37,703 nucleotides of DNA from an uncultured Acidobacteriota bacterium (GTDB lineage: Bacteria > Acidobacteriota > Vicinamibacteria > Marinacidobacterales > SMYC01), in NCBI GenBank assembly GCA_964518945.1, contig CAZFLB010000019.1, positions 1-37,703 on the forward strand. Direction: 5' to 3'. Positions 5,169-35,594 of the stretch are shown one piece after another. The number at the start of each line of letters is the position of its first letter. Position 1 is the stretch's first letter. The translations under genes and the position numbers were made by a program. The notes under the pieces were generated by a model, which saw nothing but the letters and a program-made list of their open reading frames with translations, had not been told where the DNA came from and searched no databases.

Positions 5169-6932
5169 TTAACAGCCAACGCAGTTGTGGTTATTTTTTG
5201 AGCCGAGGTTTTCAAGAAGAGCTATCGTTTCTGGAAAAGGGCTCACTCGCTGTACAGGGCCGTTTGCCATATCTACTGTAGTTTGTCCGGTTCGGCTAAC
5301 TGCAGTTACGTTGGATCCTTTTGCGACAAGGTAGTGAATAAGTTCGTTGTCGCCTCTAGCAGCGGCATGGTGGACTGGCGTGTAACCATTGTGATCTCGC
5401 TCGTTGACGTTTGCTCCAAGCTCCTCTACGAGAAATTTTACTGCGGGAAGCCATCCCTCGGGGTCGTGGCGGTGTGAGTTTCCAGCGAACCCCTGTCCAT
5501 GGCCGACACCAGAAGCGGCGTGAATTGGATAAACAGCCGGACCGCCCATTGGCACCGGAGGTAGTCCAGAGTGATCTTTGTCGTCACCATCTCGACGACG
5601 ACGTCGCTCTGGAACTCTTGTCGTTGGAGTGTGTGGGTTAGCACCATACTTAAGAAGTAACCGCATGGCCTTAATATCGAGAGCGTGAGCAGCACGCCAA
5701 AATGGTGTTGCTCCTGCACGGTTCACCCCAAGCAGATCACGGTTATAAGTTGTGTACCATAATGTTTTTTCCAGGCGTGCATTGGGGTTGACTCCAGCTT
5801 CAAGTAGTTTTTCCATCACTTCAAGATAAGTGATCTTCTGCTGTTGGTAGTTTACTGGTTGAGGATGCCGTGCTTTTGGTGCCCAGTGCATATTCAAAGC
5901 GGCATACAGAGGAGTTGCTCCAGCAGAGCTAGCGATTTCAGGGTTAGCTCCCAACTCGAAAAGTTTCATCGCTAGATCGAAATATCCATTGATCATAGCA
6001 ATTAACATGGGGCTTGTGTTGTCAGCTGCGCTTGTTTGGTTGATATCGGCTCCACCTCGAATAAGTGCGACAGAAGATTCTACGTGTCCTTCGCGAGCCG
6101 CAAGGAGAAGTGGCGTAAGCCCACCATGAGTTCCTACAAGACCAGCAAAATTAAGGGGCACGGGTTCTCCACCGCGGAGTTCTGCTTCTTCTCGTTCTTT
6201 TTGCCGCTCACGTTCTTCGTTTATTGTTACGGCGCTATCCAATTCTGATTTAGAGGGATTCTTTTCGTTTAGTCGCGCTTCTGCACGTATGGCAGCGATA
6301 CGCTCGTTTCTGCTGCGGCGTTCTGCTTGGTCGATTTTGTTGCGTTTAACGACATCGATTACAAGAGCTGTAATTCGTGGGTCGGCTCCGCGTTCGAGGA
6401 GTATATTTACAGCTTCAGTTCTACCTGCTGCTGCAGCAAACATTAGAGGGGTTTGACCCCACTGCGGCTCCTTTGAATCTAGAGAAGCGCCATGTTCAAG
6501 AAGGAGGGCGATGGACTCGGGGTTGCCCGAGGAAGCAGCAAAGTGTAACGGTGTAGCGCCCGTTGTTGTAAGGGCATTGACGTTGCTCCCAGCTAGAAGC
6601 AATTCTTTAATTGCTTTAGCACTACCAAATTTGCTTGCAACATGGAGAGGTGTGTGTGCACCTATCCGAGTCACGGCACTGGTTGAACCACCTGCTGCGA
6701 CCAAAAGGGCAATGATTTCATCGTGGTTGTTTTTGGCAGACCAGTGGAGTCCTGTCATGCCATCGGCGTGTGCTGTATTTGATTCAGCACCAAGTGCAAG
6801 GAGCTCTTGAATCTTGGCTATATCGCCATGCATGGAAGCATCAACGATAGACTCAGACAACTCTGCAGATGATGAAGATACAATCCGAAGAAAGATGGCT
6901 AGCCCAAGAATTGCTGTTGTTAGATAACGCAT
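5169..6932 (-). CDS. Secreted ankyrin-repeat protein, module A component 3
   Basis: It has a signal peptide (MRYLTTAILGLAIFLRIVSSSSAE). There are multiple ANK repeats, e.g. DGMTGLHWSAKNNHDEIIALLVAAG and TGATPLHFAASSGNPESIALLLEHGA. A charged low-complexity insert follows, then a conserved distal region. The protein ends ...GSKNNHNCVGC. An AAGGAAG RBS lies between the upstream stop (6943) and the ATG (6932). Confidence 0.85.
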   Translation of the reverse strand: MRYLTTAILGLAIFLRIVSSSSAELSESIVDASMHGDIAKIQELLALGAESNTAHADGMTGLHWSAKNNHDEIIALLVAAGGSTSAVTRIGAHTPLHVASKFGSAKAIKELLLAGSNVNALTTTGATPLHFAASSGNPESIALLLEHGASLDSKEPQWGQTPLMFAAAAGRTEAVNILLERGADPRITALVIDVVKRNKIDQAERRSRNERIAAIRAEARLNEKNPSKSELDSAVTINEERERQKEREEAELRGGEPVPLNFAGLVGTHGGLTPLLLAAREGHVESSVALIRGGADINQTSAADNTSPMLIAMINGYFDLAMKLFELGANPEIASSAGATPLYAALNMHWAPKARHPQPVNYQQQKITYLEVMEKLLEAGVNPNARLEKTLWYTTYNRDLLGVNRAGATPFWRAAHALDIKAMRLLLKYGANPHTPTTRVPERRRRRDGDDKDHSGLPPVPMGGPAVYPIHAASGVGHGQGFAGNSHRHDPEGWLPAVKFLVEELGANVNERDHNGYTPVHHAAARGDNELIHYLVAKGSNVTAVSRTGQTTVDMANGPVQRVSPFPETIALLENLGSKNNHNCVGC

Positions 6933-6942
6933 GATGCTTCCT

Positions 6943-8337
6943 TCAGCTCTTCAGTGAAAAAGCCTCAGTGCTATCACCGAACGCAGTCATATCTTCGAAG
7001 CCTAATTGATGTAAGAGAGTCAACATAACGTTGGCCATTGGGGTTCCTGGTTTAGCGCGGTAGTGAATTCCGCCTTTGTGCTTACCATTTGCTCCGCCTA
7101 CTACTAATAGAGGACATCTCTTATGATTATGGACATGCGGATCTCCCATTGGCGAACCGTAGATAACCATTGTCTTATCCAAAAGCGTTGTACCTGCTTC
7201 TTCGATGTCTTTCAGTTTCGATAAGAAATATGGAATAAGGCTAGCGTGGTATCGATTGATACGAAAGAATTCCTCGATGTTTTTTTCCTTGTCACCATGG
7301 TGTGAGGCTGGATGAAAACCGTTGTCGACTCCACTGAGAGGATAAACACGACTAGAGGCATCACGTCCCATTTTAAAAGAGAACACGCGAGTGATATCTG
7401 CTTCAAAAGCAAGAGCTTGAAGATCAAACATTAGCTTGACGTGTTCATCAAAGGAGTCGGGAACGCCTGCCGGTGCTTCGGGTAATTCGCGCGTCTCGTC
7501 GCTTTTGTTGCGTTCCACTACTTTTTGGATACGGCGCTCGATTTCCCTTACGTTTGTGAGGTAACGCTCCATGCGCCTCTTGTCAACAGCGTCTAATTCT
7601 CCTTGGAGTGTTTTAACTTCACCGATGACAAAGTCTAGAATGCTTCTCCTTGTTTTCCTCCTGACTTCTCGTTCTTCTTTGGTGCCACCAGCTCCAAACA
7701 TGAGATCGAAAGCCACACGCGGATCTCGAATCATGGGAAGTGGTTCGGTTGGTGATGACCAGCTTAGCGTGTCTGTATAGACACACGAATAACCATAGGC
7801 GCAGCCCCCTGCCTGGTCGACATTTTCGATGCAAAGTTGCATCGAGGGTATGGGGGTCTCTTGACCAAATTGTTGTGCGTACATTTGATCAAGCGATGTA
7901 CCTACAAACACGTCGGAACTTTCTGTTTGCTTTGGGTGCTCTTGGGTGAGAAAGACCGAACTTGACCGGAAGTGGTCACCCCCAATCTCTTTTGGTATTA
8001 CAGCTTCAGCATTTGCAACGTCTGTATCGCTTACAATCGTAAGTTGATTTTTGAATGGAGTAAGTGAACTTAAAGCGGTTGGTGACAGATCAAATTCGTT
8101 ACCTTCTGATGCAGGGGACCAGTAATTTTGTGTGGCGCCCCATTTTGTACTTCCTGCCGCGCCGTGAACGATCTCAATGGCTACCAAACGAGTTGGGTCA
8201 GTATCCTGGTTGGATCTTGTGCCGTGTAAAGTTTTGTGTTTTGGAACCAAAGATTCAAGGAAAGGTAGCGCAAGTGTTGCTGAAGCGCTCCGAAGAAATC
8301 TCCGCCGATGCAAGTTTTCCTTACGTATCAGACCCAT
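6943..8337 (-). CDS. Tat-exported DUF1552 (Pfam 'HXXSHH') family protein, module A component 2
   Basis: The twin-arginine leader is LHRRRFLRSASATLALPFLES. The family-defining HxxSHH is present as FHPASHHGD. His-rich GDPHVHNHKRCPLLVVGG lies near the C-terminus. An AAGGGGAG RBS lies ~9 nt upstream, and the gene starts 28 nt after the upstream gene's stop. Confidence 0.85.
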   Translation of the reverse strand: MGLIRKENLHRRRFLRSASATLALPFLESLVPKHKTLHGTRSNQDTDPTRLVAIEIVHGAAGSTKWGATQNYWSPASEGNEFDLSPTALSSLTPFKNQLTIVSDTDVANAEAVIPKEIGGDHFRSSSVFLTQEHPKQTESSDVFVGTSLDQMYAQQFGQETPIPSMQLCIENVDQAGGCAYGYSCVYTDTLSWSSPTEPLPMIRDPRVAFDLMFGAGGTKEEREVRRKTRRSILDFVIGEVKTLQGELDAVDKRRMERYLTNVREIERRIQKVVERNKSDETRELPEAPAGVPDSFDEHVKLMFDLQALAFEADITRVFSFKMGRDASSRVYPLSGVDNGFHPASHHGDKEKNIEEFFRINRYHASLIPYFLSKLKDIEEAGTTLLDKTMVIYGSPMGDPHVHNHKRCPLLVVGGANGKHKGGIHYRAKPGTPMANVMLTLLHQLGFEDMTAFGDSTEAFSLKS

Positions 8338-8365
8338 TGGCTTATTCTCCCCTTTGTCGCCTATA

Positions 8366-10810: not shown

Positions 10811-11114
10811 CCGTTAAGCACTCCAAAAACCACTACAGGCGAAGGGGCTTACGATAGCATAACATTGCCTTGATTCGTCTTGCTATGTGTACAAGGTAAG
10901 TGTGGAATAGGTGTGTTGCATTCCTGTTTCTTCAGGTGCGTAGCCGTTCGTTAGAATTCTTGACGGAGCGCTTTTTAGTGGATCTTCGTAGTTGGCAAAA
11001 TGTGTACTCATCAAGAAATCTAGATAAGCGCATCGAGTTTGGAAAACAGCTAGAATTATGTTTATGGCCCTGAACTTCCTTGACCAACAAAACACTTAAA
11101 AACCCCTATTAGTT

Positions 11115-13300: not shown

Positions 13301-13335
13301 AGAGACCCTATAGTAGTTAGAAACACCTTTCTTTG

Positions 13336-13743
13336 TTAAGGGCAGTCAGGGGTTAGGTGTTTTAAAGATGTTAGGTTCAAGTTCGAGCGGTTATTGGTGG
13401 TGTTCTCAGTCAAGAGTCCTTTAACACGTACTTTGTGGCCTTTATGTTTAGAGGGATTGAATTCTTGAAGAGTGCCAATCAGGTGATAATCATTATTGCC
13501 CAAGCTTGTTTTTGCTAGTTCATTATCAATGGTGGAAGCTGGCACTGGCTTGCTAGCCTTTGTCAAATGCCACTCTCCATCTGTTTCGGCGAGACAACCG
13601 ATGATGCCGACGACTTCCATTTTGCTCTTAGGCTGAGCAAATACTGCAGTGGTGGTGATTGCTAACAACAATCCAACTCGTGGAATCAATTTAATTTTCC
13701 GTAATTCCCTTGGTCGGAATAAATTTTTGTAAGCGCTGTCCAT
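13336..13743 (-). CDS. Small secreted protein of unknown function (last gene of the PHM/PAL-like operon)
   Basis: It has a signal-peptide-like segment (IPRVGLLLAITTTAVFAQP). It lies on the same strand directly after the NHL gene. An alternative TTG start at 13689, one nt after the NHL stop codon (TAAATTG), would remove the 53-nt overlap and seems more likely. No family was recognised. Confidence 0.5.
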   Translation of the reverse strand: MDSAYKNLFRPRELRKIKLIPRVGLLLAITTTAVFAQPKSKMEVVGIIGCLAETDGEWHLTKASKPVPASTIDNELAKTSLGNNDYHLIGTLQEFNPSKHKGHKVRVKGLLTENTTNNRSNLNLTSLKHLTPDCP

Positions 13744-14770
13744 AAGTGTCTCCTACGTATACGGCCCCTTGCGAGTCAACACCAAGTCCGTGCGCCCAAT
13801 CGAATTGTCCAGGCTCACGTCCCAAACTGCCCCAACGAGACACAATTGTTCCTTCTGGAAGAGATACTTTTAACACTTGTTCTGTTTCATGCTCCGTCAT
13901 GAACATATAGTTTTCGTCTGCTGATAGGGCGATGCCCCAAATGTACCCAAGGCCTTCTAGTTTTCCAAGAAAGTTGCCATCCGTGTCGAACATCTGAACA
14001 CGATGATTTTCACGGTCGAGAACGTAGACTTTGTTTTTGGAATCTACCAAAACTTGGTGTGGCAAGTGAAACTCACCGTCCTCCGTACTCTCATCATCAG
14101 GGCCTCCGCCCCATTCCTTGATGAATTCACCGTTAGCGGAGTACTTAGCAATTCGGTTGTTACCGTAGCCGTCAGCAATCAAGATGTCTCCAGTGTTCGT
14201 TATGGCAACGTCAGCTGGGAGGTCGAGATGGAACTGATCGTACCCTGCCTCGTCTTTGACACCAATTTCCATTAAAACGGTTTTCATTTCACGGTCCATT
14301 TTCAAAACTCGATGTGCTGCTTCGTCTACGAGCCAGACATTGCCGGCAGTATCTACCTTTATAAAATGAGGGACGGTTCCAGTGATTCCTTCTGCGCCGG
14401 TGCGTAAGACATTGCCATCGGAATCAAAAACGATCACAGGGTGTTTGCCACGATTGAAAACGTAGATGTGATCGTTTTGGTCAACCCACACTCCTGACAC
14501 TCCTGGTTGTACGCTTGGTTGGCGGATTGGTGGTGTTTCACCTCTGGATATTGCGGCTGCACGCTGATTTTCACGTTCCGTACGTGCTTTAGCACGTTCA
14601 GATGGCATAGGGAAATCTTGAGGATGTCCGAGATGCATACCTTGAGGGAGAGTCGCCCAATTGGGTACGAGCTGATAGTCCTCGATTTCTTCAATAGGGT
14701 CGGTGACAGTGCAGCTCCCCAAAGAGAGAATAACAAACAATAGACAAAACTTTATAAAAGTATGTCTCAT
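13691..14770 (-). CDS. NHL-repeat six-bladed beta-propeller lipoprotein, peptidyl-alpha-hydroxyglycine alpha-amidating lyase (PAL)-like
   Basis: The preferred start is the ATG at 14770, which overlaps the upstream stop (ATGA at 14767-14770). This gives the leader MRHTFIKFCLLFVILSLGSC, whose LGSC fits a lipobox. NHL blades carry PAL-like motifs: FNRGKH, VPHFIKVDTAGNVWLVDEAAHRVLKMD, ADGYGNNRIAKYSANGEFIKEWG, FHLPHQVLVDSKNKVYVLDRENHRVQMFD and FDWAHGLGVDSQGAVYVGD. Confidence 0.8.
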   Translation of the reverse strand: MRHTFIKFCLLFVILSLGSCTVTDPIEEIEDYQLVPNWATLPQGMHLGHPQDFPMPSERAKARTERENQRAAAISRGETPPIRQPSVQPGVSGVWVDQNDHIYVFNRGKHPVIVFDSDGNVLRTGAEGITGTVPHFIKVDTAGNVWLVDEAAHRVLKMDREMKTVLMEIGVKDEAGYDQFHLDLPADVAITNTGDILIADGYGNNRIAKYSANGEFIKEWGGGPDDESTEDGEFHLPHQVLVDSKNKVYVLDRENHRVQMFDTDGNFLGKLEGLGYIWGIALSADENYMFMTEHETEQVLKVSLPEGTIVSRWGSLGREPGQFDWAHGLGVDSQGAVYVGDTYGQRLQKFIPTKGITEN

Positions 14771-15372
14771 CTTTTGAACTCCTTTTGCCACCAAGGACTT
14801 CCGTAATTCATGTACGGTCCTCCGTCTACTGATATAGCTGCTTCAATTTTGAAATTTAAAGGAGACACCATTCGCTTTTTCGTTTTTAGACGTACAGTGT
14901 GGCCATTCGCTTCGAAAGGAGCACTCTCGTAATGAATTGTGTAGAAACCACCAAGATCGCCACCTATAGGACCTGTCCGAAACATTTCAAAGCCACGACT
15001 GTCTTTGTCGTAGCGGGCGAAGACCTTCCGTTGTTTTTCGTATGCGATGGTGGAGGTGACTGTGAAAGGCCCATCTGGGCCCTCTGCCTCGATGATGCTT
15101 GTGTAGTAATGGCCATCTTCAGAAGGCGTAAATGTTTCAGTTCCTCGGATGGTTCCAGAGGCCCCTAGCGGGCTTTCGGGAACACGCCATTCAAAATTCC
15201 ATTTACCAGGAAAATAGATGTCATAATCGAACAGGGGGGCTTCGTCACTCTTTTCAGTTGGCCGACCTAGATCAGAAATTTGTCCTCGAGGTAATTGTGT
15301 TCTTGGTTTTTCCTGCGTCCACGTTGTTGCAGTGAGCACTAATACACAGATAGATACGAGGACATGTCTCAT
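14767..15372 (-). CDS. Secreted protein of unknown function (possibly a DUF1579-like beta-barrel)
   Basis: It has a signal peptide (MRHVLVSICVLVLTATTWTQE). The ATG at 15372 overlaps the stop of the upstream monooxygenase gene by 1 nt (TGATG). A TTG at 15375 is the alternative start. The fold guess is weak. Confidence 0.55.
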   Translation of the reverse strand: MRHVLVSICVLVLTATTWTQEKPRTQLPRGQISDLGRPTEKSDEAPLFDYDIYFPGKWNFEWRVPESPLGASGTIRGTETFTPSEDGHYYTSIIEAEGPDGPFTVTSTIAYEKQRKVFARYDKDSRGFEMFRTGPIGGDLGGFYTIHYESAPFEANGHTVRLKTKKRMVSPLNFKIEAAISVDGGPYMNYGSPWWQKEFKR

Positions 15373-16823
15373 CAAGGGTCGTTGTTTTCTTCGCTGTCGG
15401 CAGCTTGTTTTGTCAGGTCCAGGCTATCTATCGAATACTCTGTGAAGGCTTGGTACATCTCATCCCAACTTTGCTCACCCCAGTAGACTTCGAGCTGTGG
15501 ACCTGGATTCCAACGGTTGTACAAAGAATTGTCATAGACGCCGATGGCGGTGATTTTGCTGCCAGCTGGAATCTTTAAGGGTTCTACGAGTTCGTAATGG
15601 ATCTGCCAGTTGAAATCAAAATCAGGCACGTCGAGAATTGTGTCCTCACGTCCGTCTGGCCAAGTGAGAATCCATCGTAGGCTCTTACCGCGAAGATGCA
15701 TATGAGGTGACATACCGTAAAGAGTAATGTCTTCAGTTACGGGTGTGATCCCAGTGATTTTCCAGTTTTCAGCATAAGGTGGAATGGTTGGGATTTTGGG
15801 GCGCACACGTTTACCGTTAGCATCAATAGAAGAAACGATCTCTTCACCGTTTACAATATAAATGTCGTGACCTTTAGGATCTGTTGGTACTGGGTTGCCG
15901 CCTTGGCGTGTGAGAACTTCGTGAGTTACTGGCTTTGTGTTAAACCAAACACCAAGTCTTGACCGGTCTTTCTCAGGTTTTCCAGTAGCGTTGTAATGCA
16001 TCGTAAATTTGATCCATTTTCCTGCCGTTAGACGCTTGCCAGTGCCGGGGCGGTGGCGTTCAACCCCTCGACCGGGCGCAAAGGAAATCAACTTACTCGT
16101 TCCCGGAAGATTGAATTGATTAAATACTGCTTGTTGAATCCTAGTCTCAGATCCTTCTGAACGTCGTGCGCGGTCAGCAGTGTTGGCTTGTTTACGGGTA
16201 AGAGGCTCACCGTCTTCGTTCACCATCTTTCCGTTTAAGATACGTGCTCCTGGAAGGGGGTCTATAACAAACGTACCAAAATGATGTACGACTGCGTGGT
16301 TGCCGGGTCGGGCTTCTAAAATTTCTGCGAAACGGTCTTCCTCGAAAGGTATTTCGACATAGAAGTCCAGATACTCTTCCTCTCCTTCTGCTGGTATTTC
16401 GTATTCAACGGGAAGCTCAAAGACATAGTCAGGTTCGCGACCGACTGTCCAACCATCAGAAAACTCTGGCATATCCGGGGGTTGGCCGTCTCCTCGTGGA
16501 GCCCCACCGTCGGCCCATGCAGTAACAACGTCAATCTCATCCTGCGTAAGGCGCCATTCGTTTCTCATTGGGAATGTATTTCCAGGGTCAGCGGGCCAAG
16601 GTGGCATTTCGCCGACAGTTATGGCAGATTTAATTGCTTGTGCCCAGGGACGAACTTCTTTGTAGTCGCGCAGAGGCATGGGGGCAATTTCCCCAGGGCG
16701 GTGGCAACTAACGCAATTCTCATAAAGAATTGGGGCAATGTCCTTCGTAAAAGTCGGAATCTCTGCAATTCCGAACACAGGAGCTAGTACCAAAGTTACA
16801 ATAAGAATCGATGCACGAGTCAT
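15372..16823 (-). CDS. Haem-c domain fused to a copper type II monooxygenase core (PHM/DBH-like)
   Basis: It has a signal peptide. The N-terminal Planctomycete-cytochrome-like domain reads FTKDIAPILYENCVSCHRPGEIAPMPL...GEMPPWPADP, with CxxCH at C37/C40/H41. The PHM-like motifs are AVVHHFGTF (H180, H181), KFTMHYNATG (H276), MSPHMHLRGKS (H374, H376) and QSWDEMYQAF (M456). Confidence 0.85.
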   Translation of the reverse strand: MTRASILIVTLVLAPVFGIAEIPTFTKDIAPILYENCVSCHRPGEIAPMPLRDYKEVRPWAQAIKSAITVGEMPPWPADPGNTFPMRNEWRLTQDEIDVVTAWADGGAPRGDGQPPDMPEFSDGWTVGREPDYVFELPVEYEIPAEGEEEYLDFYVEIPFEEDRFAEILEARPGNHAVVHHFGTFVIDPLPGARILNGKMVNEDGEPLTRKQANTADRARRSEGSETRIQQAVFNQFNLPGTSKLISFAPGRGVERHRPGTGKRLTAGKWIKFTMHYNATGKPEKDRSRLGVWFNTKPVTHEVLTRQGGNPVPTDPKGHDIYIVNGEEIVSSIDANGKRVRPKIPTIPPYAENWKITGITPVTEDITLYGMSPHMHLRGKSLRWILTWPDGREDTILDVPDFDFNWQIHYELVEPLKIPAGSKITAIGVYDNSLYNRWNPGPQLEVYWGEQSWDEMYQAFTEYSIDSLDLTKQAADSEENNDP

Positions 16824-22162: not shown

Positions 22163-22167
22163 AACTT

Positions 22168-22937: not shown

Positions 22938-24827
22938 TTAGCAAGATACGCACTTGTGGTTGTTCTTTGAGCCGAGCTCTTCAAGTAGTGCGAGCGCTTC
23001 TGGCCATGGCTGAACACGCTGTACAGGACCATTGGCCATGTCTGCAGTCGTTTGCCCTTGACGACTCACAGCGGTGACATCGCACCCTTTTGATACTAAA
23101 TACTCAATCATCTCGGAGTCGCCTCTTGTGGCAGCGTGATGTATCGCGTTGTATCCTTGGTGGTCACGAAACACAACATCTGCTCCTAATTCCTCGACAA
23201 GGTATTTAACGGTTGGCATGAAGCCGTCACGCACATGCTTATGTGAGTTGCCTGCAAAACCAGCTCCGTACCCGACGCCAGCTGCAGCTAGGAGAGGAGA
23301 GACTGCTGGACCACCTTGTGGGACGGGAGGCAAACCGGAGACATCTTCTATGTCCTCCCTGGGGCCGATTCCATCTGTTGGCTCTACCTCGGGAACTCGG
23401 GTAGGCACGTGCGGGTCTGCCCCATGGGCAACCAGCAGTTTCATAGCAGGAATGTCTGTACCGTAAGCAGCTCGCCAAAAAGGAGTCGCTCCATTCTCAT
23501 TAACGCCTGAGAGATCAAAGTTGTAACCTGAATACCATATTTTCTTTGACAAACGAGTATTGGGATCTGCTCCGTTCTTTAGAAGAATTTCCATGAAATC
23601 CAGATATGACAACTTTTGTTGTAAGTGGGCTCGTGGTTGAGGGTAGAGAGCTTTCGGAGCCCAGCGAAGATTGATAGCTGCATAAAGTGGTGTTGCTCCA
23701 GCCTCGCTTTGTAGATTTGGGTCAGCACCTTTCTCGAGCAGTGAGTTCGCCAAGTCGAAGTGCCCATTGATAGTTGCAATTAACATAGGTGTTGTCTTGT
23801 CGCCACCCGTCAGAGAGTTTATATCCGCGCCTGCTTGTAGTAATGCATCTACGCTGTCTTTATTTCCTTGGCGAGCGGCGAAATGTAAAGCCGTCATTCC
23901 ACCCTGATTGCCTACGATTTCTCCAAAAGGAAGGCGTCGAAATCGGCTTCGGCGACGCTGCTCGTCAGGACTAACTTTTTCTCCACCATCGCCCACTCCA
24001 GGAAGCCAGCCAAACATCTTTGACAGAAAACTTCTTCCTTTCTTTTTTTCTTCAGTTTCACAGTCGGGCTCGTTAAACGCTCGAACGCAAGGCCTATCTT
24101 TGTCGACTTTTTCTTCAGGAGCTGACTCTCCGGACTCCTGAGCCGCTGCCAGTTGTATCGCTTGAGCTTCTTCTAAGCGTTGTGTTCTTCGTTCTTTATC
24201 AGCTTCACTCCATTTTTTTTCGACAGCAGCTGTCTCAAAAATATTTGTGGTTGCCGTGATGTCTGCGTCGTTTTCTGCGAGTACGTTGATCACCTCATGA
24301 CGATTAAAGGCTGCAGCAAACATTAGCGGCGTGCGTCCTTTAGCTGATTCTTCTGCATTCACATTGGCGCCGCCTTCGATCAACATTTGTACTACATCGG
24401 CATTTCCTGATAGGGATGCGTACATAATAGGAGTTGTTCCAAACTCAGTTTTCGAATTGACGTCGGCATTAGCGTCGAGGAGTATCTCAATTAAATTACG
24501 GTTGCCTGTCTTGCCTGCTAAGTGCAAGGCCGTGAACTTACCTAATCTAGTTAGAGCATTTACATTTGCACCGGCATAAAGCAACATCTCAGCTATTTCT
24601 ACATTCTCATGTTTAGCTGCCCAGTGAAGTGCAGACATGCCATCACCGTGCGAAGCGTTCACATCTATTCCTTGCTTAAGAAGGGAGCGTACGGTATCCG
24701 CTTCTCCCTTCATTGACGCATCGGCTATCGGAGACATTCCGGGTTTTGGAACGTCTTTTGGTGCTGCACCGAGAAGGCAAAAAGAGAATGCAATTAGAAG
24801 CGCAATAGTTTTTATGCTCTTGAACAT
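22938..24827 (-). CDS. Secreted ankyrin-repeat protein, module B component 3
   Basis: It has a signal peptide (MFKSIKTIALLIAFSFCLLGAAP). ANK repeats are present, e.g. DGMSALHWAAKHENVEIAEMLLYAGANVNA. A long charged insert follows. The distal region is closely similar to module A, e.g. GLPPVPQGGPAV...GFAGNSHKH...MANGPVQRVQPWPE. The protein ends GSKNNHKCVSC. An AAGGAG RBS lies 6 nt upstream. Confidence 0.85.
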   Translation of the reverse strand: MFKSIKTIALLIAFSFCLLGAAPKDVPKPGMSPIADASMKGEADTVRSLLKQGIDVNASHGDGMSALHWAAKHENVEIAEMLLYAGANVNALTRLGKFTALHLAGKTGNRNLIEILLDANADVNSKTEFGTTPIMYASLSGNADVVQMLIEGGANVNAEESAKGRTPLMFAAAFNRHEVINVLAENDADITATTNIFETAAVEKKWSEADKERRTQRLEEAQAIQLAAAQESGESAPEEKVDKDRPCVRAFNEPDCETEEKKKGRSFLSKMFGWLPGVGDGGEKVSPDEQRRRSRFRRLPFGEIVGNQGGMTALHFAARQGNKDSVDALLQAGADINSLTGGDKTTPMLIATINGHFDLANSLLEKGADPNLQSEAGATPLYAAINLRWAPKALYPQPRAHLQQKLSYLDFMEILLKNGADPNTRLSKKIWYSGYNFDLSGVNENGATPFWRAAYGTDIPAMKLLVAHGADPHVPTRVPEVEPTDGIGPREDIEDVSGLPPVPQGGPAVSPLLAAAGVGYGAGFAGNSHKHVRDGFMPTVKYLVEELGADVVFRDHQGYNAIHHAATRGDSEMIEYLVSKGCDVTAVSRQGQTTADMANGPVQRVQPWPEALALLEELGSKNNHKCVSC

Positions 24828-24841
24828 GAGTGCTCCTTAGA

Positions 24842-26212
24842 TTAGATAGCAGCTTCGCCTGTACTGTCTCCGAAGCTGTCCATTTCAAGTCCAAGACGGC
24901 GCATTACTGTTAGCATCGTGTTTGCCATTGGAGTGCCATCGGCTTCTTTAATGTGCAAATTGCCCTTGAATTGGTTGCGGCCGTGGCCAGCAAGAAAGAG
25001 TGGGCAGCGTTTGTGATTGTGAACATTTGAGTTGCCCATCGGTGAACCATAAACAATTAGCGTGTTGTCAAGAAGGTTTCCCTCACCATCAGGTGTATTT
25101 TTTAGTGTTTCAAGAAAATGAGGCACCATCGAAACGTGATAAGTGTTGATTTTTGCAAAGTCCAGTACCGTTTTTTCTTGATCTCGATGATGGGAGGCAG
25201 GATGAAACCCTGTGTTTACTCCACTTTCAGGGTATGCTCGTCCAGATCCGTCACGACCTAATTTAAAGGCAAACACCCGTGTGGTGTCAGACATAAATGC
25301 GGCGGCCTGAAGATCGAACATTAACTTTACATGTTCTTCGAAAGAATCAGGAACGCCTATAGGGGCATTTGGCAATTCGCGAGATTCACCGCTAGCATTA
25401 CGTTCTTCTATCTTTTGGATGCGGCGCTCGATTTCACGAACATTGTCAAGATAATCGTCTAAACGACTGCGATCAGAGGGCCCTAGAGTTTTTTTCATGC
25501 GCGCAACCTCATCGGTTATCCAATCCAAGATGCTGCGGTCGGTTTTACGGCGTTCACTTCGCTCTTCAGGTGTGGCCCCGGCGCCGAATAATTGGTCAAA
25601 GACGATGCGAGGATTGCGAATCATCGGCAGAGGATCTGTCGGTGAAGCCCAGCTAATTGAGTCTGTATATACACATGAATAATTGTAAGTACAGCCACCA
25701 GCTTGGTCTACGTTTTCAATAGACAGTTGCATTGATGGCATTGGAGTATCTTGTCCAAATTTCTGTGCATATAACTGGTCTACCGATGTGCCGGCACGGA
25801 CATCAGATCCTTGAGTTTGTTTCGGGTGTGCTTGAGTCAAGAAAACAGCACTCGACCGAAAGTGGTCTCCACCAATTTCAGGGAGTGTGAATGCCTCTGC
25901 CATTCGCACATCGGTGTTACTTACGATCGTAAGATAATCACGGTACGGTTCTAGTGAAATCAGGCTGGTTGGGGACAAATCAAATTCATTTCCCTCTAAA
26001 GCTGGAGACCACAGGTTCTTTTCTATCCCTATTTTGGTGCTACCTGCTGCTCCGTGTACCATCTCAATGCATACCAGGCGCGAAGGGTCAGACTTTGGTG
26101 CAGCCCAAGCTTTGCCTGCCGGGACCATCGATTCCAAAAAAGGCAAGGCTATAGTTGCTCCTACCCCACGAAGTACAGTCCGTCGAGACAAGTGCTTATT
26201 AGTGATATACAT
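24842..26212 (-). CDS. Tat-exported DUF1552 (HXXSHH) family protein, module B component 2
   Basis: The start was chosen at the ATG at 26212, 8 nt after AGGAGG. The ORF-track start at 26290 overlaps the upstream gene and lacks an RBS. The Tat leader is LSRRTVLRGVGATIALPFLES. FHPASHHRD and NSNVHNHKRCPLFLAGHG are present. By eye, well over half of the aligned residues match module A. Confidence 0.85.
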   Translation of the reverse strand: MYITNKHLSRRTVLRGVGATIALPFLESMVPAGKAWAAPKSDPSRLVCIEMVHGAAGSTKIGIEKNLWSPALEGNEFDLSPTSLISLEPYRDYLTIVSNTDVRMAEAFTLPEIGGDHFRSSAVFLTQAHPKQTQGSDVRAGTSVDQLYAQKFGQDTPMPSMQLSIENVDQAGGCTYNYSCVYTDSISWASPTDPLPMIRNPRIVFDQLFGAGATPEERSERRKTDRSILDWITDEVARMKKTLGPSDRSRLDDYLDNVREIERRIQKIEERNASGESRELPNAPIGVPDSFEEHVKLMFDLQAAAFMSDTTRVFAFKLGRDGSGRAYPESGVNTGFHPASHHRDQEKTVLDFAKINTYHVSMVPHFLETLKNTPDGEGNLLDNTLIVYGSPMGNSNVHNHKRCPLFLAGHGRNQFKGNLHIKEADGTPMANTMLTVMRRLGLEMDSFGDSTGEAAI

Positions 26213-26252
26213 CGCTGTGTTCCTCCTAAAACTTAAAAGGCCTTGAGATATT

Positions 26253-28697
26253 TCATTGTTGTGCTGTGTTGATTTGTTCTGTTCCACCAAGTCGAGTCAT
26301 TTGAAATGCGTTGCTTTTTACAACACCGAGTATGAATGATGCAACAAGGTTGTCTTCTTCAGCAGCGTCTCGGATGATGTGTCGTATCGTTGGCATATCA
26401 AAGTACTCTACTCTTCGACCTAGTGCGTACGTTAACAAACTTTCGGTAAAACTTGTAATTACAGCATTGGAATGTTTCATTAGAGCATTACGTAATCCTA
26501 CAGGGCCGTCCATTTGAGTACCATCGTATAGTTCGCCGGAGGAATCGATAGGACTATCATCGCTGTCTTTAATACGCCACGCACCAGTAACATCGAAGTT
26601 CTCGAGTGCAAGGCCTAACGGATCGATTACAACGTGACACGACATGCAAGCTGGATTTGAACGATGGGCTTCCATTGCTTCACGCACTGTGAGTTTTTGG
26701 CCAACCACGGCCTCTTGAGCTTCCTCAAGGGTGGGAATATCAGGAGGAGGAGGAGGAGGAGGACTACCTAGGAGTACTTCCAGTATCCATTTTCCTCGCA
26801 TTACCGGAGATGTCCGATCAGCGATGGAGGTGAGTGTTAGAACACTTCCTTGACCTAGGATGCCGCGACGGTTTTCATCGTTTAGCTTGGTGTATCTAAA
26901 ATGACTTCCTGTAACATCATCCAATTGATAATGTCTCGCTAAACGTTCGTTGGCAAAAGTGTAATCAGCGGAAATGATATCGAGAATGCTTCGATTTTCC
27001 TTGAAGATATAGTTGAAAAACAGCTGTGTTTCCCGAACTAGGTCCTCTCCAAGTTTGTGATCGTATTGCGGGTATAACAAAGCGTCTGGATGTAAATTCT
27101 TTACGTCTTGGAGGCGGAGCCATTGCGAAGCAAACCGAGTGCCTAGAGTTTCCGAGCGAGGGTCTGTCAAGAGTCTTTTTACTTGAGTTTCGAGAGTGAT
27201 CGGATCATCGAGTTGTCCTGCGCTTGCAAGCTCTCTTAGTTCGTCATCTGGGACAGTACCCCAGATAAAGAACGACAGCCTTGACGCAAGTTCTGTTTGA
27301 GATATCCGGTAATTGGTTTGTTCTGGGGTTAGTTCTTGAGGAGCCTGTTCGACACGGAACACAAAATGAGGACTTGCAAGGATAGCTTGCAATGCATGGC
27401 GGATGCCATTCTCGAAACCTCCAGTTTGAGAGCCTATCCGATAAAAGGACATAATGCCTTCTATGTCGGTTTCATCGACAGGGCGCCGGTATGCTTTTTC
27501 CAATAGACGCGTGATGATTTTGCTTGCGCATGGAAGCTCATCGTTTTTAGAAGTTGGTCGGCACACGAAAATCTCACGTCGACTTGGTGTCTCCGACACG
27601 CCAGTTACATTGGTTGGCCCATTAATACTAAAAAATCGTAAATGAGGAAGTGTAGTCATTCCATGTGCACGACCGACTGTGGTGTCAGTAAGTGTGTGCT
27701 CAATCGGTGCCATTAAATCGTGAACAGGCCCATCCTCGTTTTGTATGAATGCTGCTGAAATTCGTTGTGGCCCCGCTTTCACTGTAACTGGTTCACTGGT
27801 CATGACCATGCCATTTGGGTCCTGCTCATGCATCAAGGGGTTAACGCTGAGGAGAGCTTTCCGATAGCCATTTATGGAGACTTCCAATTTTTCATTCTCT
27901 GCGGTTAACCCAAAGAGAAAACCTGTGGGTGTACTATGGAGTTGAATTTTAAAGATGTATTCTCCATCGGCTGGAAAGTGATGAATGATAGAGAGTCCGC
28001 CTCGAGTTCCTATCGGAGCACCTTCGACGTGTTCCATCTGTGATGCAGTACGCGGGATTTTATATGTCGCTTCAGTTGGACTTGCGTTGCGATCTCCGAC
28101 AGCATCCCGACTTATCTGACTAGCTGCACGCATATATCCTTCTAAGAGCGTCGCGGACATCTGTTGGACTTCGGAAACATTGTCAAAACTATTACTTACC
28201 GTGTCTGGAGGTAGAAAATCTTCGACCTTAACGTCAATTGAAACAAGGTCTTTGACTGAACGCTGATAGTCTGAACGGTTAAGACGTTGAAATGTCCGCC
28301 ATCCGGGATTTGGATTGAGCAAACTCGCTTCGTCCATGATTAATTCGAGCGATGTTACAAATTCTGTAATGGCTTCTGGCTCGGGTTGCGGAGCGATTGC
28401 TGGAGGCATCATTCCAGTTCTTATTTTGCGTATCATTTTCTCGGTGAGCTCTGCATTTTCAACGACGCGAGCTGCATCGAAAGACTCGAGCGTTAGTCCG
28501 CCGGTTTTTGCTGCATCACTGTGGCACATGATGCAGGTCTCTTCCACAAAGAGATTTAGGGACTCTGTTGAAAGTGTTGTTGATGCTTTGGTGGTTGTCG
28601 GAGCGGTCAGGATTTTGATTGATGATGGCTCAGTGTAAGCTAAGTTAGCGACACACAAAGAATAGACAACTAACATTCTTTTAGTTAGGGATCTCAT
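26253..28697 (-). CDS. PSD-type multidomain protein (DUF1587/1592/1595/1588/1585) with two CxxCH motifs, module B component 1
   Basis: A GGAG RBS is present. The motifs are CIMCH plus KIRTGMMPP, FQRLNRSDYQRSVKDL, ASPHFVFRVE, LASRLSFFIWGTVPDDEL, FASQWLRLQDV, RTSPVMRGKWILEVLLGSPPPPPPPDIPTLE and CMSCHVVIDPLGLALENFDVTGAWR. Confidence 0.85.
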   Translation of the reverse strand: MRSLTKRMLVVYSLCVANLAYTEPSSIKILTAPTTTKASTTLSTESLNLFVEETCIMCHSDAAKTGGLTLESFDAARVVENAELTEKMIRKIRTGMMPPAIAPQPEPEAITEFVTSLELIMDEASLLNPNPGWRTFQRLNRSDYQRSVKDLVSIDVKVEDFLPPDTVSNSFDNVSEVQQMSATLLEGYMRAASQISRDAVGDRNASPTEATYKIPRTASQMEHVEGAPIGTRGGLSIIHHFPADGEYIFKIQLHSTPTGFLFGLTAENEKLEVSINGYRKALLSVNPLMHEQDPNGMVMTSEPVTVKAGPQRISAAFIQNEDGPVHDLMAPIEHTLTDTTVGRAHGMTTLPHLRFFSINGPTNVTGVSETPSRREIFVCRPTSKNDELPCASKIITRLLEKAYRRPVDETDIEGIMSFYRIGSQTGGFENGIRHALQAILASPHFVFRVEQAPQELTPEQTNYRISQTELASRLSFFIWGTVPDDELRELASAGQLDDPITLETQVKRLLTDPRSETLGTRFASQWLRLQDVKNLHPDALLYPQYDHKLGEDLVRETQLFFNYIFKENRSILDIISADYTFANERLARHYQLDDVTGSHFRYTKLNDENRRGILGQGSVLTLTSIADRTSPVMRGKWILEVLLGSPPPPPPPDIPTLEEAQEAVVGQKLTVREAMEAHRSNPACMSCHVVIDPLGLALENFDVTGAWRIKDSDDSPIDSSGELYDGTQMDGPVGLRNALMKHSNAVITSFTESLLTYALGRRVEYFDMPTIRHIIRDAAEEDNLVASFILGVVKSNAFQMTRLGGTEQINTAQQ
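26743..26763 (-). repeat. Perfect (CCT)7 trinucleotide tract encoding the heptaproline of module B component 1
   Basis: The plus strand reads GGA x7 at 26743-26763. This is CCT x7 in the coding frame (GSPPPPPPPD). The paralogue in module A encodes the same PPPPPPP with mixed CCA/CCT codons (8844-8864). Confidence 0.9.
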
Positions 28698-28921: not shown

Positions 28922-30139
28922 TTATCGCCAAAACGCAGGTATTTTTGTCTTAGTGTCTTTTAGTATCTCGATCGTCTCTTCCCTTTTCGCTTGGGTGAGA
29001 AACTCGTAAAGACTTCGGTATATTTTATCGCGTACGCTACTTGGCAAGGTGTCGAAAGCTTTAGTGTAGATCATATAACTTAGGGGGTATTTGAATAAAC
29101 GAGTGCGAAGGTCGAATTCACGCAAAGACCGACCTTTTTGATCAAAAGGCCCTTTTGCGGAGAATGTTTCGGTGAACATTGATACACCTTTTAAGGGTTG
29201 TAGTAATTTTGCTTCCTCCTTGAACAACATGTAGCTCACTAACTCGCTGATTTCGGCGTTTAGAGTATCAATGCTTCCATCTCCGGCCGTCAAAAGACGT
29301 GCTGTCCAATTAAGGCGTGTTAACAAATTCGTCATTTGCGTCTGATGCTCTAGTGTCATCAGTGCGACGATGTCGCTTGAGCTTGTTGGGTAGGCAGTTG
29401 TACGCAACTGTCGTAAAAGGCTTATTAGATTTGGCACACCACCACTTCGAGGAGCGGTGGTGTCAGCAGGACCTCTTCTTGCAGTGTTTCCCCTATGGTT
29501 TTTGAGTTCGTTTGCGCTATCTACGAACCAACCGCCCCATCTCGTGGAGAATGGACTACGGTGATCGGTGACAATAGAACCCATTCGAAAGTCTGGCTTG
29601 CCTGAAGGCGTTGTATACATGGAGCTAACGTAAATTCCAGGAACTCCTAGAGTTGCGGGTCCTTGGTGACATGAAAGGCAAATTCTAGGACGTTCGAATT
29701 TGGGAGGCATTTCACTGTCAGTGCTCAATGTAAAAAAGACGGTGCCGAGTTTTGAGTCGACACTCGATATCTCGATCACACTGGCACCAGGAACAAAGCC
29801 TATTGCCACATCGTCATTAAAGTAGATTGCGCGCGGGGTCCGAGGAGATATGTGTGCACGCTGCAAGCTGTTTTGTGCAAATACTAGCGTTTGAGAATCA
29901 GCCCGGATGTCAAAAACTCTCATAAGGTTATGGAGATAGGACGAACCATCTGCTGAAGGAAGGAGTTTCTGTTCCCCGCTCTCAAGGCTAGATATAAGGT
30001 GGCTGACAGGGTTGTCGGCAGGAGTTGCCCAATATTGAATTGATTGGTGCTCAGCTGGCAAGTCATTCTTGTATAGTTGTGCTGGTTCGCTACTAGCAGA
30101 GAAAATCAGGAAAACAAAGCCAACAACGATGCCCAACAT
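28922..30139 (-). CDS. Conserved hypothetical exported protein with a single CxxCH motif
   Basis: The N-terminus is hydrophobic. The motif RICLSCHQGPATLGVPG is followed by TDHRSPFSTRWGGWFV. It lies on the same strand as module B, 224 nt upstream of it. No family name can be given from memory. Confidence 0.55.
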   Translation of the reverse strand: MLGIVVGFVFLIFSASSEPAQLYKNDLPAEHQSIQYWATPADNPVSHLISSLESGEQKLLPSADGSSYLHNLMRVFDIRADSQTLVFAQNSLQRAHISPRTPRAIYFNDDVAIGFVPGASVIEISSVDSKLGTVFFTLSTDSEMPPKFERPRICLSCHQGPATLGVPGIYVSSMYTTPSGKPDFRMGSIVTDHRSPFSTRWGGWFVDSANELKNHRGNTARRGPADTTAPRSGGVPNLISLLRQLRTTAYPTSSSDIVALMTLEHQTQMTNLLTRLNWTARLLTAGDGSIDTLNAEISELVSYMLFKEEAKLLQPLKGVSMFTETFSAKGPFDQKGRSLREFDLRTRLFKYPLSYMIYTKAFDTLPSSVRDKIYRSLYEFLTQAKREETIEILKDTKTKIPAFWR

Positions 30140-30241
30140 GGGGTAACATTACTTTAACTTAGCAAGCAGGTATAGGTTACATTTGCAAGTCATTTTGCAG
30201 TCCACTATGTATGAAGTAGATTAATTGCCATAAAGGCGTGG

Positions 30242-32629: not shown

Positions 32630-32646
32630 CCAGTAGGAAAATAGAG

Positions 32647-34020: not shown

Positions 34021-34025
34021 AGACA

Positions 34026-35594
34026 ATGTGGATAAAACGGTCTCTTAGAATGTTTCTAACATTCCTTACTAGTTCAATCCTTTTTATTGCTGAGCCGGTC
34101 AGAAGCTCACAGCTTGTTTCCGAAGCAAAAGAAGGAAATATGAACGCCGTTCATACATTGCTACATGACAATGTTGATGTTAACGCTGCTGAGGGCGACG
34201 GGATGACAGCACTTCATTGGGCTTCGTTTCGTGATGATTTATCTCTCGCGATGCTCTTAATCAGTGCGGACGCACGAACCGATGTGACTACTCGCGTTGG
34301 CCAAATTACTCCCCTATTCATAGCAAGTAAAAACGGTAGTGTTTCTATGATAAAGCTGCTTATTGGTGCTGGAGCGGATCCAAATCGTTCAACCGATACT
34401 GGTGCAAGTCCTTTAATGGCGGCTTCGGCAGCTGGAGATGTTGAGGCTGTGGCAGCTTTAATTACTGAGGGCGCTGACTTAAATGCCAGAGAATCACATA
34501 ATGGACAGACGCCTCTGATGTTTGCAGCCTGGGAGAATCGCCCCGAAGTCATCTCGTTTTTAATGGAACAAGGTGCACATTCTGAATTAACTACATCGGT
34601 ATTGTCGCTGAATGAAGATAGGCTTGACGAGTATGGAAACCCGAGGCGCAGAACTAAGGGTTCGGAGCAGTCTGGTGGTAATTCAGCAATGGGGGGAATG
34701 ACAGCACTTTTGTTTGCTGCACGGGATGGAAATATAGAAGCTGTGAAAGCCTTGGTGGAGGCAGGAGCTGATGTTAATCACGTTAGCGGTGGAGATGCTT
34801 CAAGCCCAGCTGTTATCGCTATAGCGAATGGGCATTATACGGTTGGTCAGTACCTTCTTGATAAAGGAGCGGATCCGAACAACGCAAATCTGGATGGCCT
34901 GACACCTTTAATGGCAGCGGTGAACATGCGTTATGCTCCTGTTTCTTGGGCACCGAATCCCAGAACTGACCAAGAAGTTGTTAGTTCGCTCGATCTTATC
35001 CAAGCGCTTCTAGAAAGAGGCGCTGAACCTAATGCTCGAATAAAACGTAAGCTTTGGTTCAGTCCAACGTCTCATGATCGCGGCTGGGTTGATCATGATG
35101 GTGTAACGGCATTTTGGAGAGCAGCGATGTCAAGCGACATGGAAGCAATGCGTGTTTTGGTTTCCGGCGGAGCTGACCCTAATCTCATGTCAGACAAGGC
35201 AGCAACTCCCCTGATGGTTGCTGCTGGGCTAGGCTGGATCGGTAACTTTAGCCAGAATGCGCCTGACTCGTTTGTAGATGCAGTTAAGTATTGTCTCGAA
35301 CTGGGGAACGAAGTGAATGCTGTTGACCATAACGGCTTTACAGCGCTCCACGGAGCAGCCTCACGAGGTGATAATGCAGTAATTAAAATTCTCGTTGAGC
35401 ATGGTGCTAGGGTCGATGTTTTAAATAAGGATGGAAATTCTGTCGCAGACATGGCGTTTGGGCCATCTCGCTTTTTTATTCCACGACCGGAAACTGTTGA
35501 TCTTCTTGTCGAACTTGGGTCCCCATTTCAGAACAATTGCCGGTCGGATCAATGTGTCGACGGAAAATTTCTTGGAGCGCAAGTAGCTAAGTAA
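34026..35594 (+). CDS. Secreted ankyrin-repeat protein, module C component 3
   Basis: The N-terminus is hydrophobic. ANK repeats are present, e.g. DGMTALHWASFRDDLSLAMLLISADA and NGFTALHGAASRGDNAVIKILVEHGA. The distal motifs are shared with A and B, e.g. RYAPVSWAPNP and DMAFGPSRFFIPRPETVDLLVELGSP. The C-terminal Cys pair has different spacing (NNCRSDQCVDG). The gene starts 5 nt after component 2, and an ATG at 34050 is an alternative start. Confidence 0.8.
   Translation: MWIKRSLRMFLTFLTSSILFIAEPVRSSQLVSEAKEGNMNAVHTLLHDNVDVNAAEGDGMTALHWASFRDDLSLAMLLISADARTDVTTRVGQITPLFIASKNGSVSMIKLLIGAGADPNRSTDTGASPLMAASAAGDVEAVAALITEGADLNARESHNGQTPLMFAAWENRPEVISFLMEQGAHSELTTSVLSLNEDRLDEYGNPRRRTKGSEQSGGNSAMGGMTALLFAARDGNIEAVKALVEAGADVNHVSGGDASSPAVIAIANGHYTVGQYLLDKGADPNNANLDGLTPLMAAVNMRYAPVSWAPNPRTDQEVVSSLDLIQALLERGAEPNARIKRKLWFSPTSHDRGWVDHDGVTAFWRAAMSSDMEAMRVLVSGGADPNLMSDKAATPLMVAAGLGWIGNFSQNAPDSFVDAVKYCLELGNEVNAVDHNGFTALHGAASRGDNAVIKILVEHGARVDVLNKDGNSVADMAFGPSRFFIPRPETVDLLVELGSPFQNNCRSDQCVDGKFLGAQVAK

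Follow-up and report, generated by a model that had tools for sequence, protein, structure and literature searches.

According to the passages of PMC5615132 and PMC3542564 that cite Studholme 2004, genes for proteins with PSCyt/PSD domains are paired with DUF1552 genes in Planctomycetes and Verrucomicrobia; the function of this pair is stated to be unknown (PMC5615132). The function of another system, the clusters of DUF1501 with PSCyt1/PSCyt2/PSD1 genes in bacteria of the Planctomycetes-Verrucomicrobia-Chlamydiae (PVC) group, is also given as unknown (Kamneva et al. 2012, PMC3542564). In the katB-ankB operon of Pseudomonas aeruginosa, as the part of PMC12754779 that cites Howell et al. 2000 describes it, a periplasmic ankyrin protein is encoded directly downstream of a haem enzyme and is needed for the full activity of that enzyme. 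Here we analyze a stretch of 37,703 nucleotides (nt) from an uncultured Acidobacteriota bacterium of the Marinacidobacterales (contig CAZFLB010000019.1; "the window" hereafter means this whole stretch), in which a PSCyt/PSD-DUF1552 pair followed by a gene for a secreted ankyrin protein occurs three times. An earlier reading of the window from its letters only (the sequence-only reading) had called the pair known but functionally uncharacterized, which is also how the literature has it (PMC5615132). We propose, with somewhat more confidence than doubt, that each trio is a periplasmic redox-enzyme module in which the ankyrin protein serves as a dedicated subunit or assembly factor.

Gene Content of the Three Modules

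At a cut-off of 150 amino acids (aa), 24 open reading frames (ORFs) were counted in the window, and nine of these make up three triads, designated modules A, B and C (Table 1). In each module the order is the same: a two-haem PSD/PSCyt3 protein (component 1), a DUF1552 protein with a twin-arginine translocation (Tat) signal (component 2) and an ankyrin protein with a signal peptide (component 3). Three occurrences of the same three families in one order over 30 kb cannot be put down to chance. The ORF coordinates match exactly the threefold arrangement that the sequence-only reading had claimed, and Pfam searches bore out its family assignments for all nine products. The export signals it had listed can likewise be read from the sequence, as hydrophobic N-termini in components 1 and 3 and as a Tat motif in component 2.

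The genes within a module are separated by short spacers, of 28 and 10 nt in module A and 17 and 5 nt in module C, in agreement with the earlier values. Those given for module B (40 and 14 nt) agree as well, provided that the internal ATG at 26212 (MYITNKHLSRRTVLRG) is taken as the start of B2. This start is favored by alignment with orthologues, and the maximal B2 ORF (TTG start, 24842–26290) would overlap B1 by 38 nt. Purine-rich runs resembling ribosome-binding sites were observed ahead of A2, A3, B2, B3 and C2 (e.g., GGGGAG ahead of A2, AGGAGG ahead of B2 and AAGGAG ahead of B3). The claim that each downstream gene has its own ribosome-binding site holds for five of the six, but the site ahead of C3 is weak. 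Scans for promoters and terminators were uninformative, as the number of sites was no higher than in shuffled controls and none was located in the short spacers.

Comparison of the modules indicated that the duplications are not recent. Modules A and B share 51, 62 and 51% aa identity in components 1, 2 and 3, respectively, and module C is 42–54% identical to A or B; A and B, which had been described as close paralogues, are merely moderately close, and C is the more divergent copy, as claimed. In partial nucleotide alignments no two modules are more than 65% identical, and each of the three copies encodes the polyproline tract with different codons, as the sequence-only reading had noted when it argued for old duplications. 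Because of this divergence (42–62% aa and at most 65% nt identity, with different polyproline codons) the copies are, as judged by comparison with one another, old paralogues, and both an assembly artefact and a recent duplication are ruled out by the nucleotide divergence.

Table 1. Genes of modules A, B and C and the adjacent haem-protein gene H, with positions in the window.
Feature	Product	Position	Strand	Basis
A1	Two-haem PSD/PSCyt3 (DUF1587-1595-1592-1588-1585) protein, exported, 814 aa	8366..10810	-	ORF, Pfam, CxxCH
A2	Tat-signal DUF1552/HXXSHH protein, 464 aa	6943..8337	-	Pfam PF07586, E 7e-85; HRRRFLR, HPASHH
A3	Signal-peptide ankyrin protein, 587 aa, C-terminus CVGC	5169..6932	-	Pfam ankyrin families
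B1	Two-haem PSD/PSCyt3 protein, 814 aa	26253..28697	-	Pfam, CxxCH
B2	DUF1552/HXXSHH protein, 456 aa from ATG 26212	24842..26212	-	Pfam, E 1e-86; orthologue alignment
B3	Signal-peptide ankyrin protein, 629 aa, C-terminus CVSC	22938..24827	-	Pfam
C1	Two-haem PSD/PSCyt3 protein, 795 aa	30242..32629	+	Pfam, AF2 model
C2	Tat-signal DUF1552/HXXSHH protein, 457 aa	32647..34020	+	Pfam, E 3e-85; AF2 model
C3	Signal-peptide ankyrin protein, 522 aa, C-x4-C near C-terminus	34026..35594	+	Pfam
H	Exported protein, 405 aa, one CxxCH (CLSCH)	28922..30139	-	Homology to genes beside C-type trios

Distribution and Co-Divergence of the Trio

A DUF1552 alignment was scanned against one genome per species of the Genome Taxonomy Database (GTDB), and the best 80 loci, 62–78% identical to the query, were analyzed. 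These are from Acidobacteriota (Vicinamibacteria, Vicinamibacterales and Holophagae) and Gemmatimonadota (Longimicrobiales, Candidatus Palauibacter and Gemmatimonadaceae). Counts of adjacency were made on these loci together with those retrieved earlier through homologues of A3. An ankyrin-family ORF was found directly downstream of DUF1552 in 98 of the 102 cases with enough downstream DNA, and component 1 directly ahead of it in 97 of 98. The spacers in the related trios are also short (medians of 20 nt and 10 nt, 87–94 trios), and 22 of 77 loci have two triads in tandem. When three A3 homologues were looked up, two proved to lie in the same trio with flanks unrelated to those of the window, and the third was at a contig end. 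The nearest relatives of the window's modules are in Acidobacteriota metagenome-assembled genomes (MAGs).

A MAG of the Tepidisphaeraceae (Planctomycetota), members of the Bryobacteraceae and other large genomes also contain trios resembling module C (C-type, as opposed to A/B-type). On a plasmid of Novosphingobium sp. KACC 22771 the pair is 37–38% identical and is followed by a signal-bearing ankyrin protein of 417 aa. The sequence-only reading had made its three-component interpretation depend on finding such neighbors elsewhere, and ankyrin genes do stand beside DUF1592/DUF1552 pairs outside the lineage of the window, from the close relatives (98/102) to Planctomycetota, Bryobacteraceae and an alphaproteobacterial plasmid.

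The order of the genes was permuted in two Vicinamibacterales loci (L049 and L077), with the ankyrin gene immediately before another component 1. In both, a normal trio precedes this second module by a few kb. In L077 (12045–15376) it comprises a gene of the metallo-beta-lactamase fold, an ankyrin gene (36% identity to C3) and component 1, all confirmed by Pfam; in L049 (12698–15222) there is an equivalent 355-aa ORF and then an ankyrin gene, after which the locus ends.

The surroundings of the trio are variable. The commonest flanking family was present in 9 of about 86 loci, and clustering of the flanking ORFs revealed no further universally conserved neighbor of A/B-type modules. Because the flanking genes are not conserved, the triad can be considered an autonomous module. 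Some neighbors do recur in L089 and L098 (also L091, L001, L004 and L005): creatininase and glyoxalase genes adjoin C-type trios, and amidohydrolase or hydantoinase genes are near several A-type trios. Such neighbors were not significant in the clustering of flanks, and may be coincidence or a hint of cyclic-amide substrates.

To compare the divergence of the three genes, pairwise protein distance matrices were calculated for 67 complete triads. The matrices of the three proteins correlate with r = 0.89–0.92 (Mantel p = 0.001), a value of a kind that species relatedness inflates, and 19 tandem-triad loci (38 modules) were added for that reason. In these, the nearest neighbor in another genome occupied the same tandem position for 33 of the 38 DUF1552 proteins and 32 of the 38 ankyrins, and the ankyrin and DUF1552 agreed on paralogue class in 33 of the 38 modules. 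Consistent with this, all three genes have their nearest relatives in the same loci (L008, L001 and L009 for module A, L088 and L089 for module C). Because of the agreement in the tandem modules, the ankyrin gene has been duplicated together with its own enzyme genes and has remained paired to them.

Cytochrome Genes Beside the Trio

Between modules B and C lies a gene, H, that encodes a mono-haem protein. It is divergent from C1 over a spacer of 102 nt, and B1, which is on the strand of H, follows 224 nt downstream of it. Sequence and profile searches of Pfam, NCBIfam and PDB gave no match for H other than chance ones in the PDB. It is 43–50% identical to the product of a gene beside C-type trios in L088, L089 and L096. 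In L088 and L089 this gene comes after the ankyrin gene, and in L096 it lies upstream of component 1 in divergent orientation, the arrangement also seen in the window.

A metagenome scan for the H family returned 80 loci, of which 57 were assessable, and H directly adjoins a trio, mostly of C-type, in 38 of these. It is the fourth gene, directly after the ankyrin, in 27 loci, and in 14 of those 27 a small CytoC_RC-like di-haem cytochrome is next. In seven loci H is divergent from component 1, as in module C, in three it is directly upstream, as in module B, and in one it is convergent. Eighteen loci had no trio nearby, and no common partner was found in loci with H only. Module C is therefore probably a four-gene system that includes H, and the triad interval should be read accordingly. 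The three-component unit of the sequence-only reading is upheld in that the trio is conserved and co-diverging, but C-type modules usually include an additional haem protein as fourth member and, in many cases, the small cytochrome as fifth.

Additional cytochrome genes were also observed beside pairs that have no ankyrin gene. In Sphingobium herbicidovorans (L095, plasmid pMSHV, 4352–8498) the pair is followed by cytochrome c and cytochrome b genes. In L097 (389–2319) an ankyrin-less pair is followed by a 146-aa CxxCH protein. These two cases hint that the position of the third gene is often taken by an electron carrier. Because extra cytochromes (H, the CytoC_RC-like protein and those of Sphingobium and L097) have been recruited repeatedly, we favor redox chemistry tied to the respiratory chain over plain hydrolysis.

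The Cytochrome and DUF1552 Components

In A1, B1 and C1, Pfam searches identified PSD3, PSD5, PSD4, PSCyt3 and PSD2 in that order (E 1e-17 to 1e-46), and all five domains exceed the Pfam gathering cut-offs. The N-terminus has a weak Pfam cytochrome c match. There are two CxxCH motifs per protein, at residues 51 and 688 in A1, 55 and 684 in B1, and 43 and 668 in C1. The motif in PSCyt3 (C668, C671 and H672 in C1) is invariant in 122 sequences. In the same homologue alignment the N-terminal motif is at least 90% conserved and is accompanied by an invariant MPP, which is typical of a Met ligand region and may act as one. The AlphaFold2 (AF2) model of C1 had a predicted local distance difference test score (pLDDT) of 82. 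In this model a beta-sandwich at about residues 196–352 has fold matches to the carbohydrate-binding modules (CBMs) CBM35, CBM6 and CBM36 (probability 1.0, E 6e-3, TMt ~0.5); Pfam returned no CBM match for component 1. The beta-sandwich alone has relatives in the PDB, the helical PSD domains having no solved ones. Searches of the PDB with component 1 sequences and profiles gave chance matches only, and NCBIfam has no model for component 1.

Component 2 matches Pfam HXXSHH/DUF1552 in all three modules (E about 1e-85), and HxxSHH itself is present in 67 of 67 related proteins. Each copy carries a twin-arginine motif of the form S/H-R-R-x-[FV]-L-R (HRRRFLR, SRRTVLR and SRRSVLR), which was found in 63 of the 67 relatives; with the hydrophobic stretch that follows the motif, component 2 is a predicted Tat substrate. 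Many His, Asp and Glu residues are invariant in DUF1552 homologues, as would be expected of a metal site. NCBIfam has no model for this component. The AF2 model of C2, made with 122 homologues, had a pLDDT of 73, a predicted template modeling (TM) score of 0.82 and disordered stretches. When it was compared with the PDB by Foldseek, all 50 matches listed were members of the alkaline-phosphatase superfamily (LtaP, S1 sulfatases, YejM, autotaxin and phosphonoacetate hydrolase), with a best E of ~2e-3, TM scores of 0.30–0.36 and probabilities up to 0.99. These matches point weakly to an alkaline-phosphatase/sulfatase fold, and we assign DUF1552 to it tentatively. The proposal of the sequence-only reading that component 2 is a metal enzyme gains weak support at the level of fold, from matches in this superfamily only.

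Such a fold raises the alternative that the modules serve hydrolytic nutrient scavenging, for example as a phospho- or sulfo-ester hydrolase acting on glycans imported through TonB-dependent receptors, with the haems used for sensing or structure. In addition to the modeled folds of DUF1552 and of the CBM-like domain in component 1, this alternative could draw on the TonB-dependent-receptor-like genes near several modules, and PSCyt genes have been found co-located with sulfatases and CBMs (PMC5615132). However, the adjacency of TonB receptors is sporadic, and the nucleophile motif of sulfatases, C/S-x-P-x-R, is not conserved, since 8 of 67 component 2 sequences match it and none at a conserved position; nor did Pfam find a Sulfatase match in component 2. 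A plain hydrolase would also not need two strictly conserved, predicted covalent haem sites, and the repeated recruitment of extra cytochrome genes is a further point against this alternative, which we consider unlikely.

The Ankyrin Component

Component 3 matches Pfam Ank, Ank_2 and Ank_4 with E down to 1e-65. The protein A3 is nevertheless, to judge from its relatives, more than a generic repeat protein. It has more than 100 full-length homologues at 58–70% identity, and those with a source name are from Acidobacteria/Vicinamibacteria or Gemmatimonadales MAGs. The C-terminal half of the family is the more conserved. When a representative library was searched with this half, 1020 matches had E ≤ 1e-30, many of them giant repeat proteins of more than 1000 aa, and so no clean family size was obtained; a few dozen of the clusters at 50% identity align from end to end. 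The nearest relatives of C3 come after C-type pairs (L088, L089, L091 and L096–L098).

Ankyrins of the A/B-type end in NN[HD]xC[VL]xC-COOH, and each Cys is present in 96% of 67 aligned sequences. The C-termini of A3 and B3, with this C-[VL]-x-C, are encoded at 5169–5180 and 22938–22949. The CxxC, which was not found in the C-type and Novosphingobium ankyrins, may form a disulfide, bind a metal or take part in thiol-redox chemistry.

Ankyrin proteins of bacteria have been proposed to be eukaryote-like host-interaction effectors in sponge symbionts and Legionella, in which case their genes would be beside the pair by chance. Some carriers of the trio are indeed sponge-associated (Candidatus Palauibacter poriticola), and the terminal C-V-x-C superficially resembles a CaaX box. 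Component 3 also has sub-threshold similarity to the NCBIfam T4SS_Ank* models of Legionella Dot/Icm effectors, with scores of 60–132 bits that are far under the cut-offs of 450–1400 and reflect generic repeats. In contrast, the proteins have Sec signal peptides, their genes follow DUF1552 by 5–14 nt in an operon and co-diverge with the enzyme genes, and members of the family are frequent in metagenomes of soil and fresh water as well as in Vicinamibacterales that are free-living. We consider an effector role extremely improbable, and it was rejected based on synteny and signal peptides.

A role as a transient factor is harder to set aside. The ankyrin protein could, like AnkB, aid maturation or protection in the periplasm, promoting haem or metal loading or the stability of component 1 or 2, and have no part in the working enzyme. 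The katB-ankB operon would be a precedent by analogy, distant pairs function without an ankyrin gene, and the terminal CxxC of the A/B-type ankyrins (missing, as noted, from the C-type and Novosphingobium proteins) could be a thiol-redox or metal-handling site. However, these ankyrins are large (520–630 aa, roughly a dozen repeats) and are conserved over their full length, with 58–70% identity across phyla. In addition, the co-divergence of the ankyrin with the pair is as tight as that between the two enzyme subunits themselves, which is more typical of a stable partner than of a general chaperone. We regard a purely transient role as rather doubtful, although it is the most serious of the alternatives considered here.

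Remaining Genes of the Window

The contig begins at the end of an rRNA operon, because a partial 23S rRNA gene (1–1700, model positions 1259–2925) followed by a 5S rRNA gene (1786–1902) is at the start of the window, on the plus strand; no tRNA genes were found in the window. At 13691–16823, on the minus strand, are three co-oriented genes for exported proteins: a 483-aa CVSCH protein without a Pfam family, a protein with a weak DUF1579 match and an NHL-repeat beta-propeller. Relatives of the 483-aa protein (26–29% identity) are encoded a few kb from trios in L042, L048, L062, L085 and L140. Downstream of module C (35676–37568, plus strand), an S15 (X-Pro dipeptidyl-peptidase/CocE-like) hydrolase is split between two ORFs that are not in the same frame, a catalytic one of 399 aa and a PepX_C one of 173 aa; a frameshift is the probable cause, and reflects either a pseudogene or a sequencing error.

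Discussion

We hypothesize that each module is a self-contained operon whose three exported proteins would cooperate in the periplasm, possibly as a physical complex. Component 2 would be the catalytic subunit, a metal-dependent enzyme with a distant alkaline-phosphatase/sulfatase-like fold, adopted in the cytoplasm before export by Tat. Component 1, with a class-I-like c-haem domain at its N-terminus, a second c-haem in PSCyt3 and a CBM-like beta-sandwich, probably binds the substrate, which could be glycan-like, and would carry electrons toward the catalytic site or away from it. Component 3, dedicated to its own pair, would be either a stoichiometric scaffold subunit or an assembly or stabilizing factor. 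C-type modules would have a longer chain, with the 405-aa mono-haem protein and in many cases a small di-haem cytochrome as the link to the respiratory chain. The three paralogous copies presumably differ in substrate specificity.

A more specific version of this proposal makes the ankyrin protein a structural subunit, and an obligate one, of a new class of periplasmic redox metalloenzymes, in which a subunit with an alkaline-phosphatase fold is wired to c-type haems. We put this forward tentatively and think it possible, though with more doubt than belief. Were it true, a bacterial oxidoreductase would for the first time have been found to possess an ankyrin subunit of its own, and the enzymes would form a widespread, multi-copy class in soil and marine Acidobacteriota and Gemmatimonadota, with a different abundant substrate for each trio. 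It would also give a first functional handle on the whole PSCyt/PSD-DUF1552/DUF1501 expansion.

Several observations weigh against these proposals. Among the close relatives, 4 of 102 lack the ankyrin gene (L078, L080, L081 and L084, all in Marinacidobacterales MAGs), and more distant DUF1592/DUF1552 pairs (23–32% identity) are without it as well; in these the next gene encodes a DUF1080 protein in Planctomyces sp. SH-PL62, there is nothing in Chondrinema litorale, and the cytochrome c and b genes noted above follow in Sphingobium herbicidovorans. Given its absence from such distant pairs, the ankyrin is not required for the core chemistry. The assignment of the DUF1552 fold is weak, as is evident from the TM, E and pLDDT values given above, and it has no support at the level of sequence, since PDB sequence and profile searches with DUF1552 gave chance matches only and hhalign of its profile against a neighboring type I sulfatase gave nothing. 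We know of no precedent for the wiring of haems to an alkaline-phosphatase fold, the superfamily being hydrolytic and non-redox. Lastly, the CBM-like match in component 1 may represent a generic beta-jelly roll.

The four close relatives without an ankyrin gene have the look of degraded or mobilized copies. In each of the four loci a near-identical DUF1585-only stub and a DUF1552 gene are located at about 6650–8365, and a single 10-Mb genome accounts for three of the loci. Closer examination of one locus, L078, showed an rve-type (insertion sequence-type) integrase gene and a TonB-dependent receptor gene beside the copy.

The sequence-only reading had raised the ankyrin as an obligate third partner of the pair. 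This is borne out for the close relatives, 98 of 102 of which have the gene, but not for the family as a whole, given the distant pairs that lack it. Because of those pairs, the ankyrin marks a large subclade of the DUF1592/DUF1552 system, with members in four phyla or more, rather than the family in its entirety. The same reading was aware of no description of an obligate ankyrin partner. Our full-text literature searches combining ankyrin and the DUF names found no relevant paper, and, within the literature searched, both the ankyrin partner and the 405-aa haem protein appear to be undescribed.

The PSCyt/PSD cytochromes and their DUF1552 or DUF1501 partners are among the most expanded uncharacterized families in Planctomycetes, Verrucomicrobia, Acidobacteriota and Gemmatimonadota. 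A co-evolving ankyrin defines within them a discrete, portable module that could be expressed and purified as a unit. The ankyrin and the extra cytochromes point to redox chemistry over simple hydrolysis and provide an interaction hypothesis that is directly testable. These findings are also a warning against counting such ankyrin genes as "eukaryote-like" host-interaction factors in surveys of symbiont genomes.

Comparison with Described Systems

The SorAB sulfite dehydrogenase is a periplasmic enzyme of two subunits, a catalytic one that is exported by Tat and a c-type cytochrome. The trios would resemble dehydrogenases of this type in having a cofactor-bearing Tat substrate and a Sec-exported c-haem carrier encoded side by side. 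They differ in that no molybdopterin or flavin domain is present here, and an ankyrin partner is not part of SorAB-type systems.

With the alkaline phosphatase/type I sulfatase/LtaS/NPP superfamily, DUF1552 shares the Foldseek matches, all 50 of those listed, and the possession of invariant His, Asp and Glu residues. In contrast, the TM scores are as low as 0.30–0.36, there is no sequence or profile match, the C/S-x-P-x-R motif is missing, and DUF1552 has an obligate haem-protein partner, which the members of the superfamily are not known to have.

The precedent that the sequence-only reading had seen in katB-ankB is a real one, as there too a periplasm-directed ankyrin protein is encoded together with a haem protein, but it is an analogy only. 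No catalase domain was found in any module or flank, and generic ankyrin repeats are the extent of the homology. With fewer than 200 aa, AnkB is a small protein, and the ankyrins described here have 520–630 aa with a family-specific C-terminal half.

More similar are the DUF1501/PSCyt clusters, in which a Tat-signal uncharacterized enzyme is likewise encoded with a large multidomain c-haem protein, in many duplicates per genome, and which are sometimes extended by repeat proteins (WD40 or Big_2). However, other Pfam families are involved on both sides, and the repeat partner in those clusters is a WD40 domain fused to the cytochrome domain instead of an ankyrin protein with its own gene.

The closest relatives of the trios are the PSCyt/PSD and DUF1552 pairs themselves, with which they share an identical domain architecture of component 1 and a neighboring Tat-signal DUF1552 gene. 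A DUF1592 gene with a co-oriented DUF1552 gene downstream was found in the window, in 97 of 98 relatives and in distant annotated plasmids. The subclade described here differs from those pairs in being found mainly in Acidobacteriota and Gemmatimonadota instead of PVC bacteria, and in having in addition a secreted ankyrin protein and, in the C-type, the haem protein H with or without a di-haem cytochrome.

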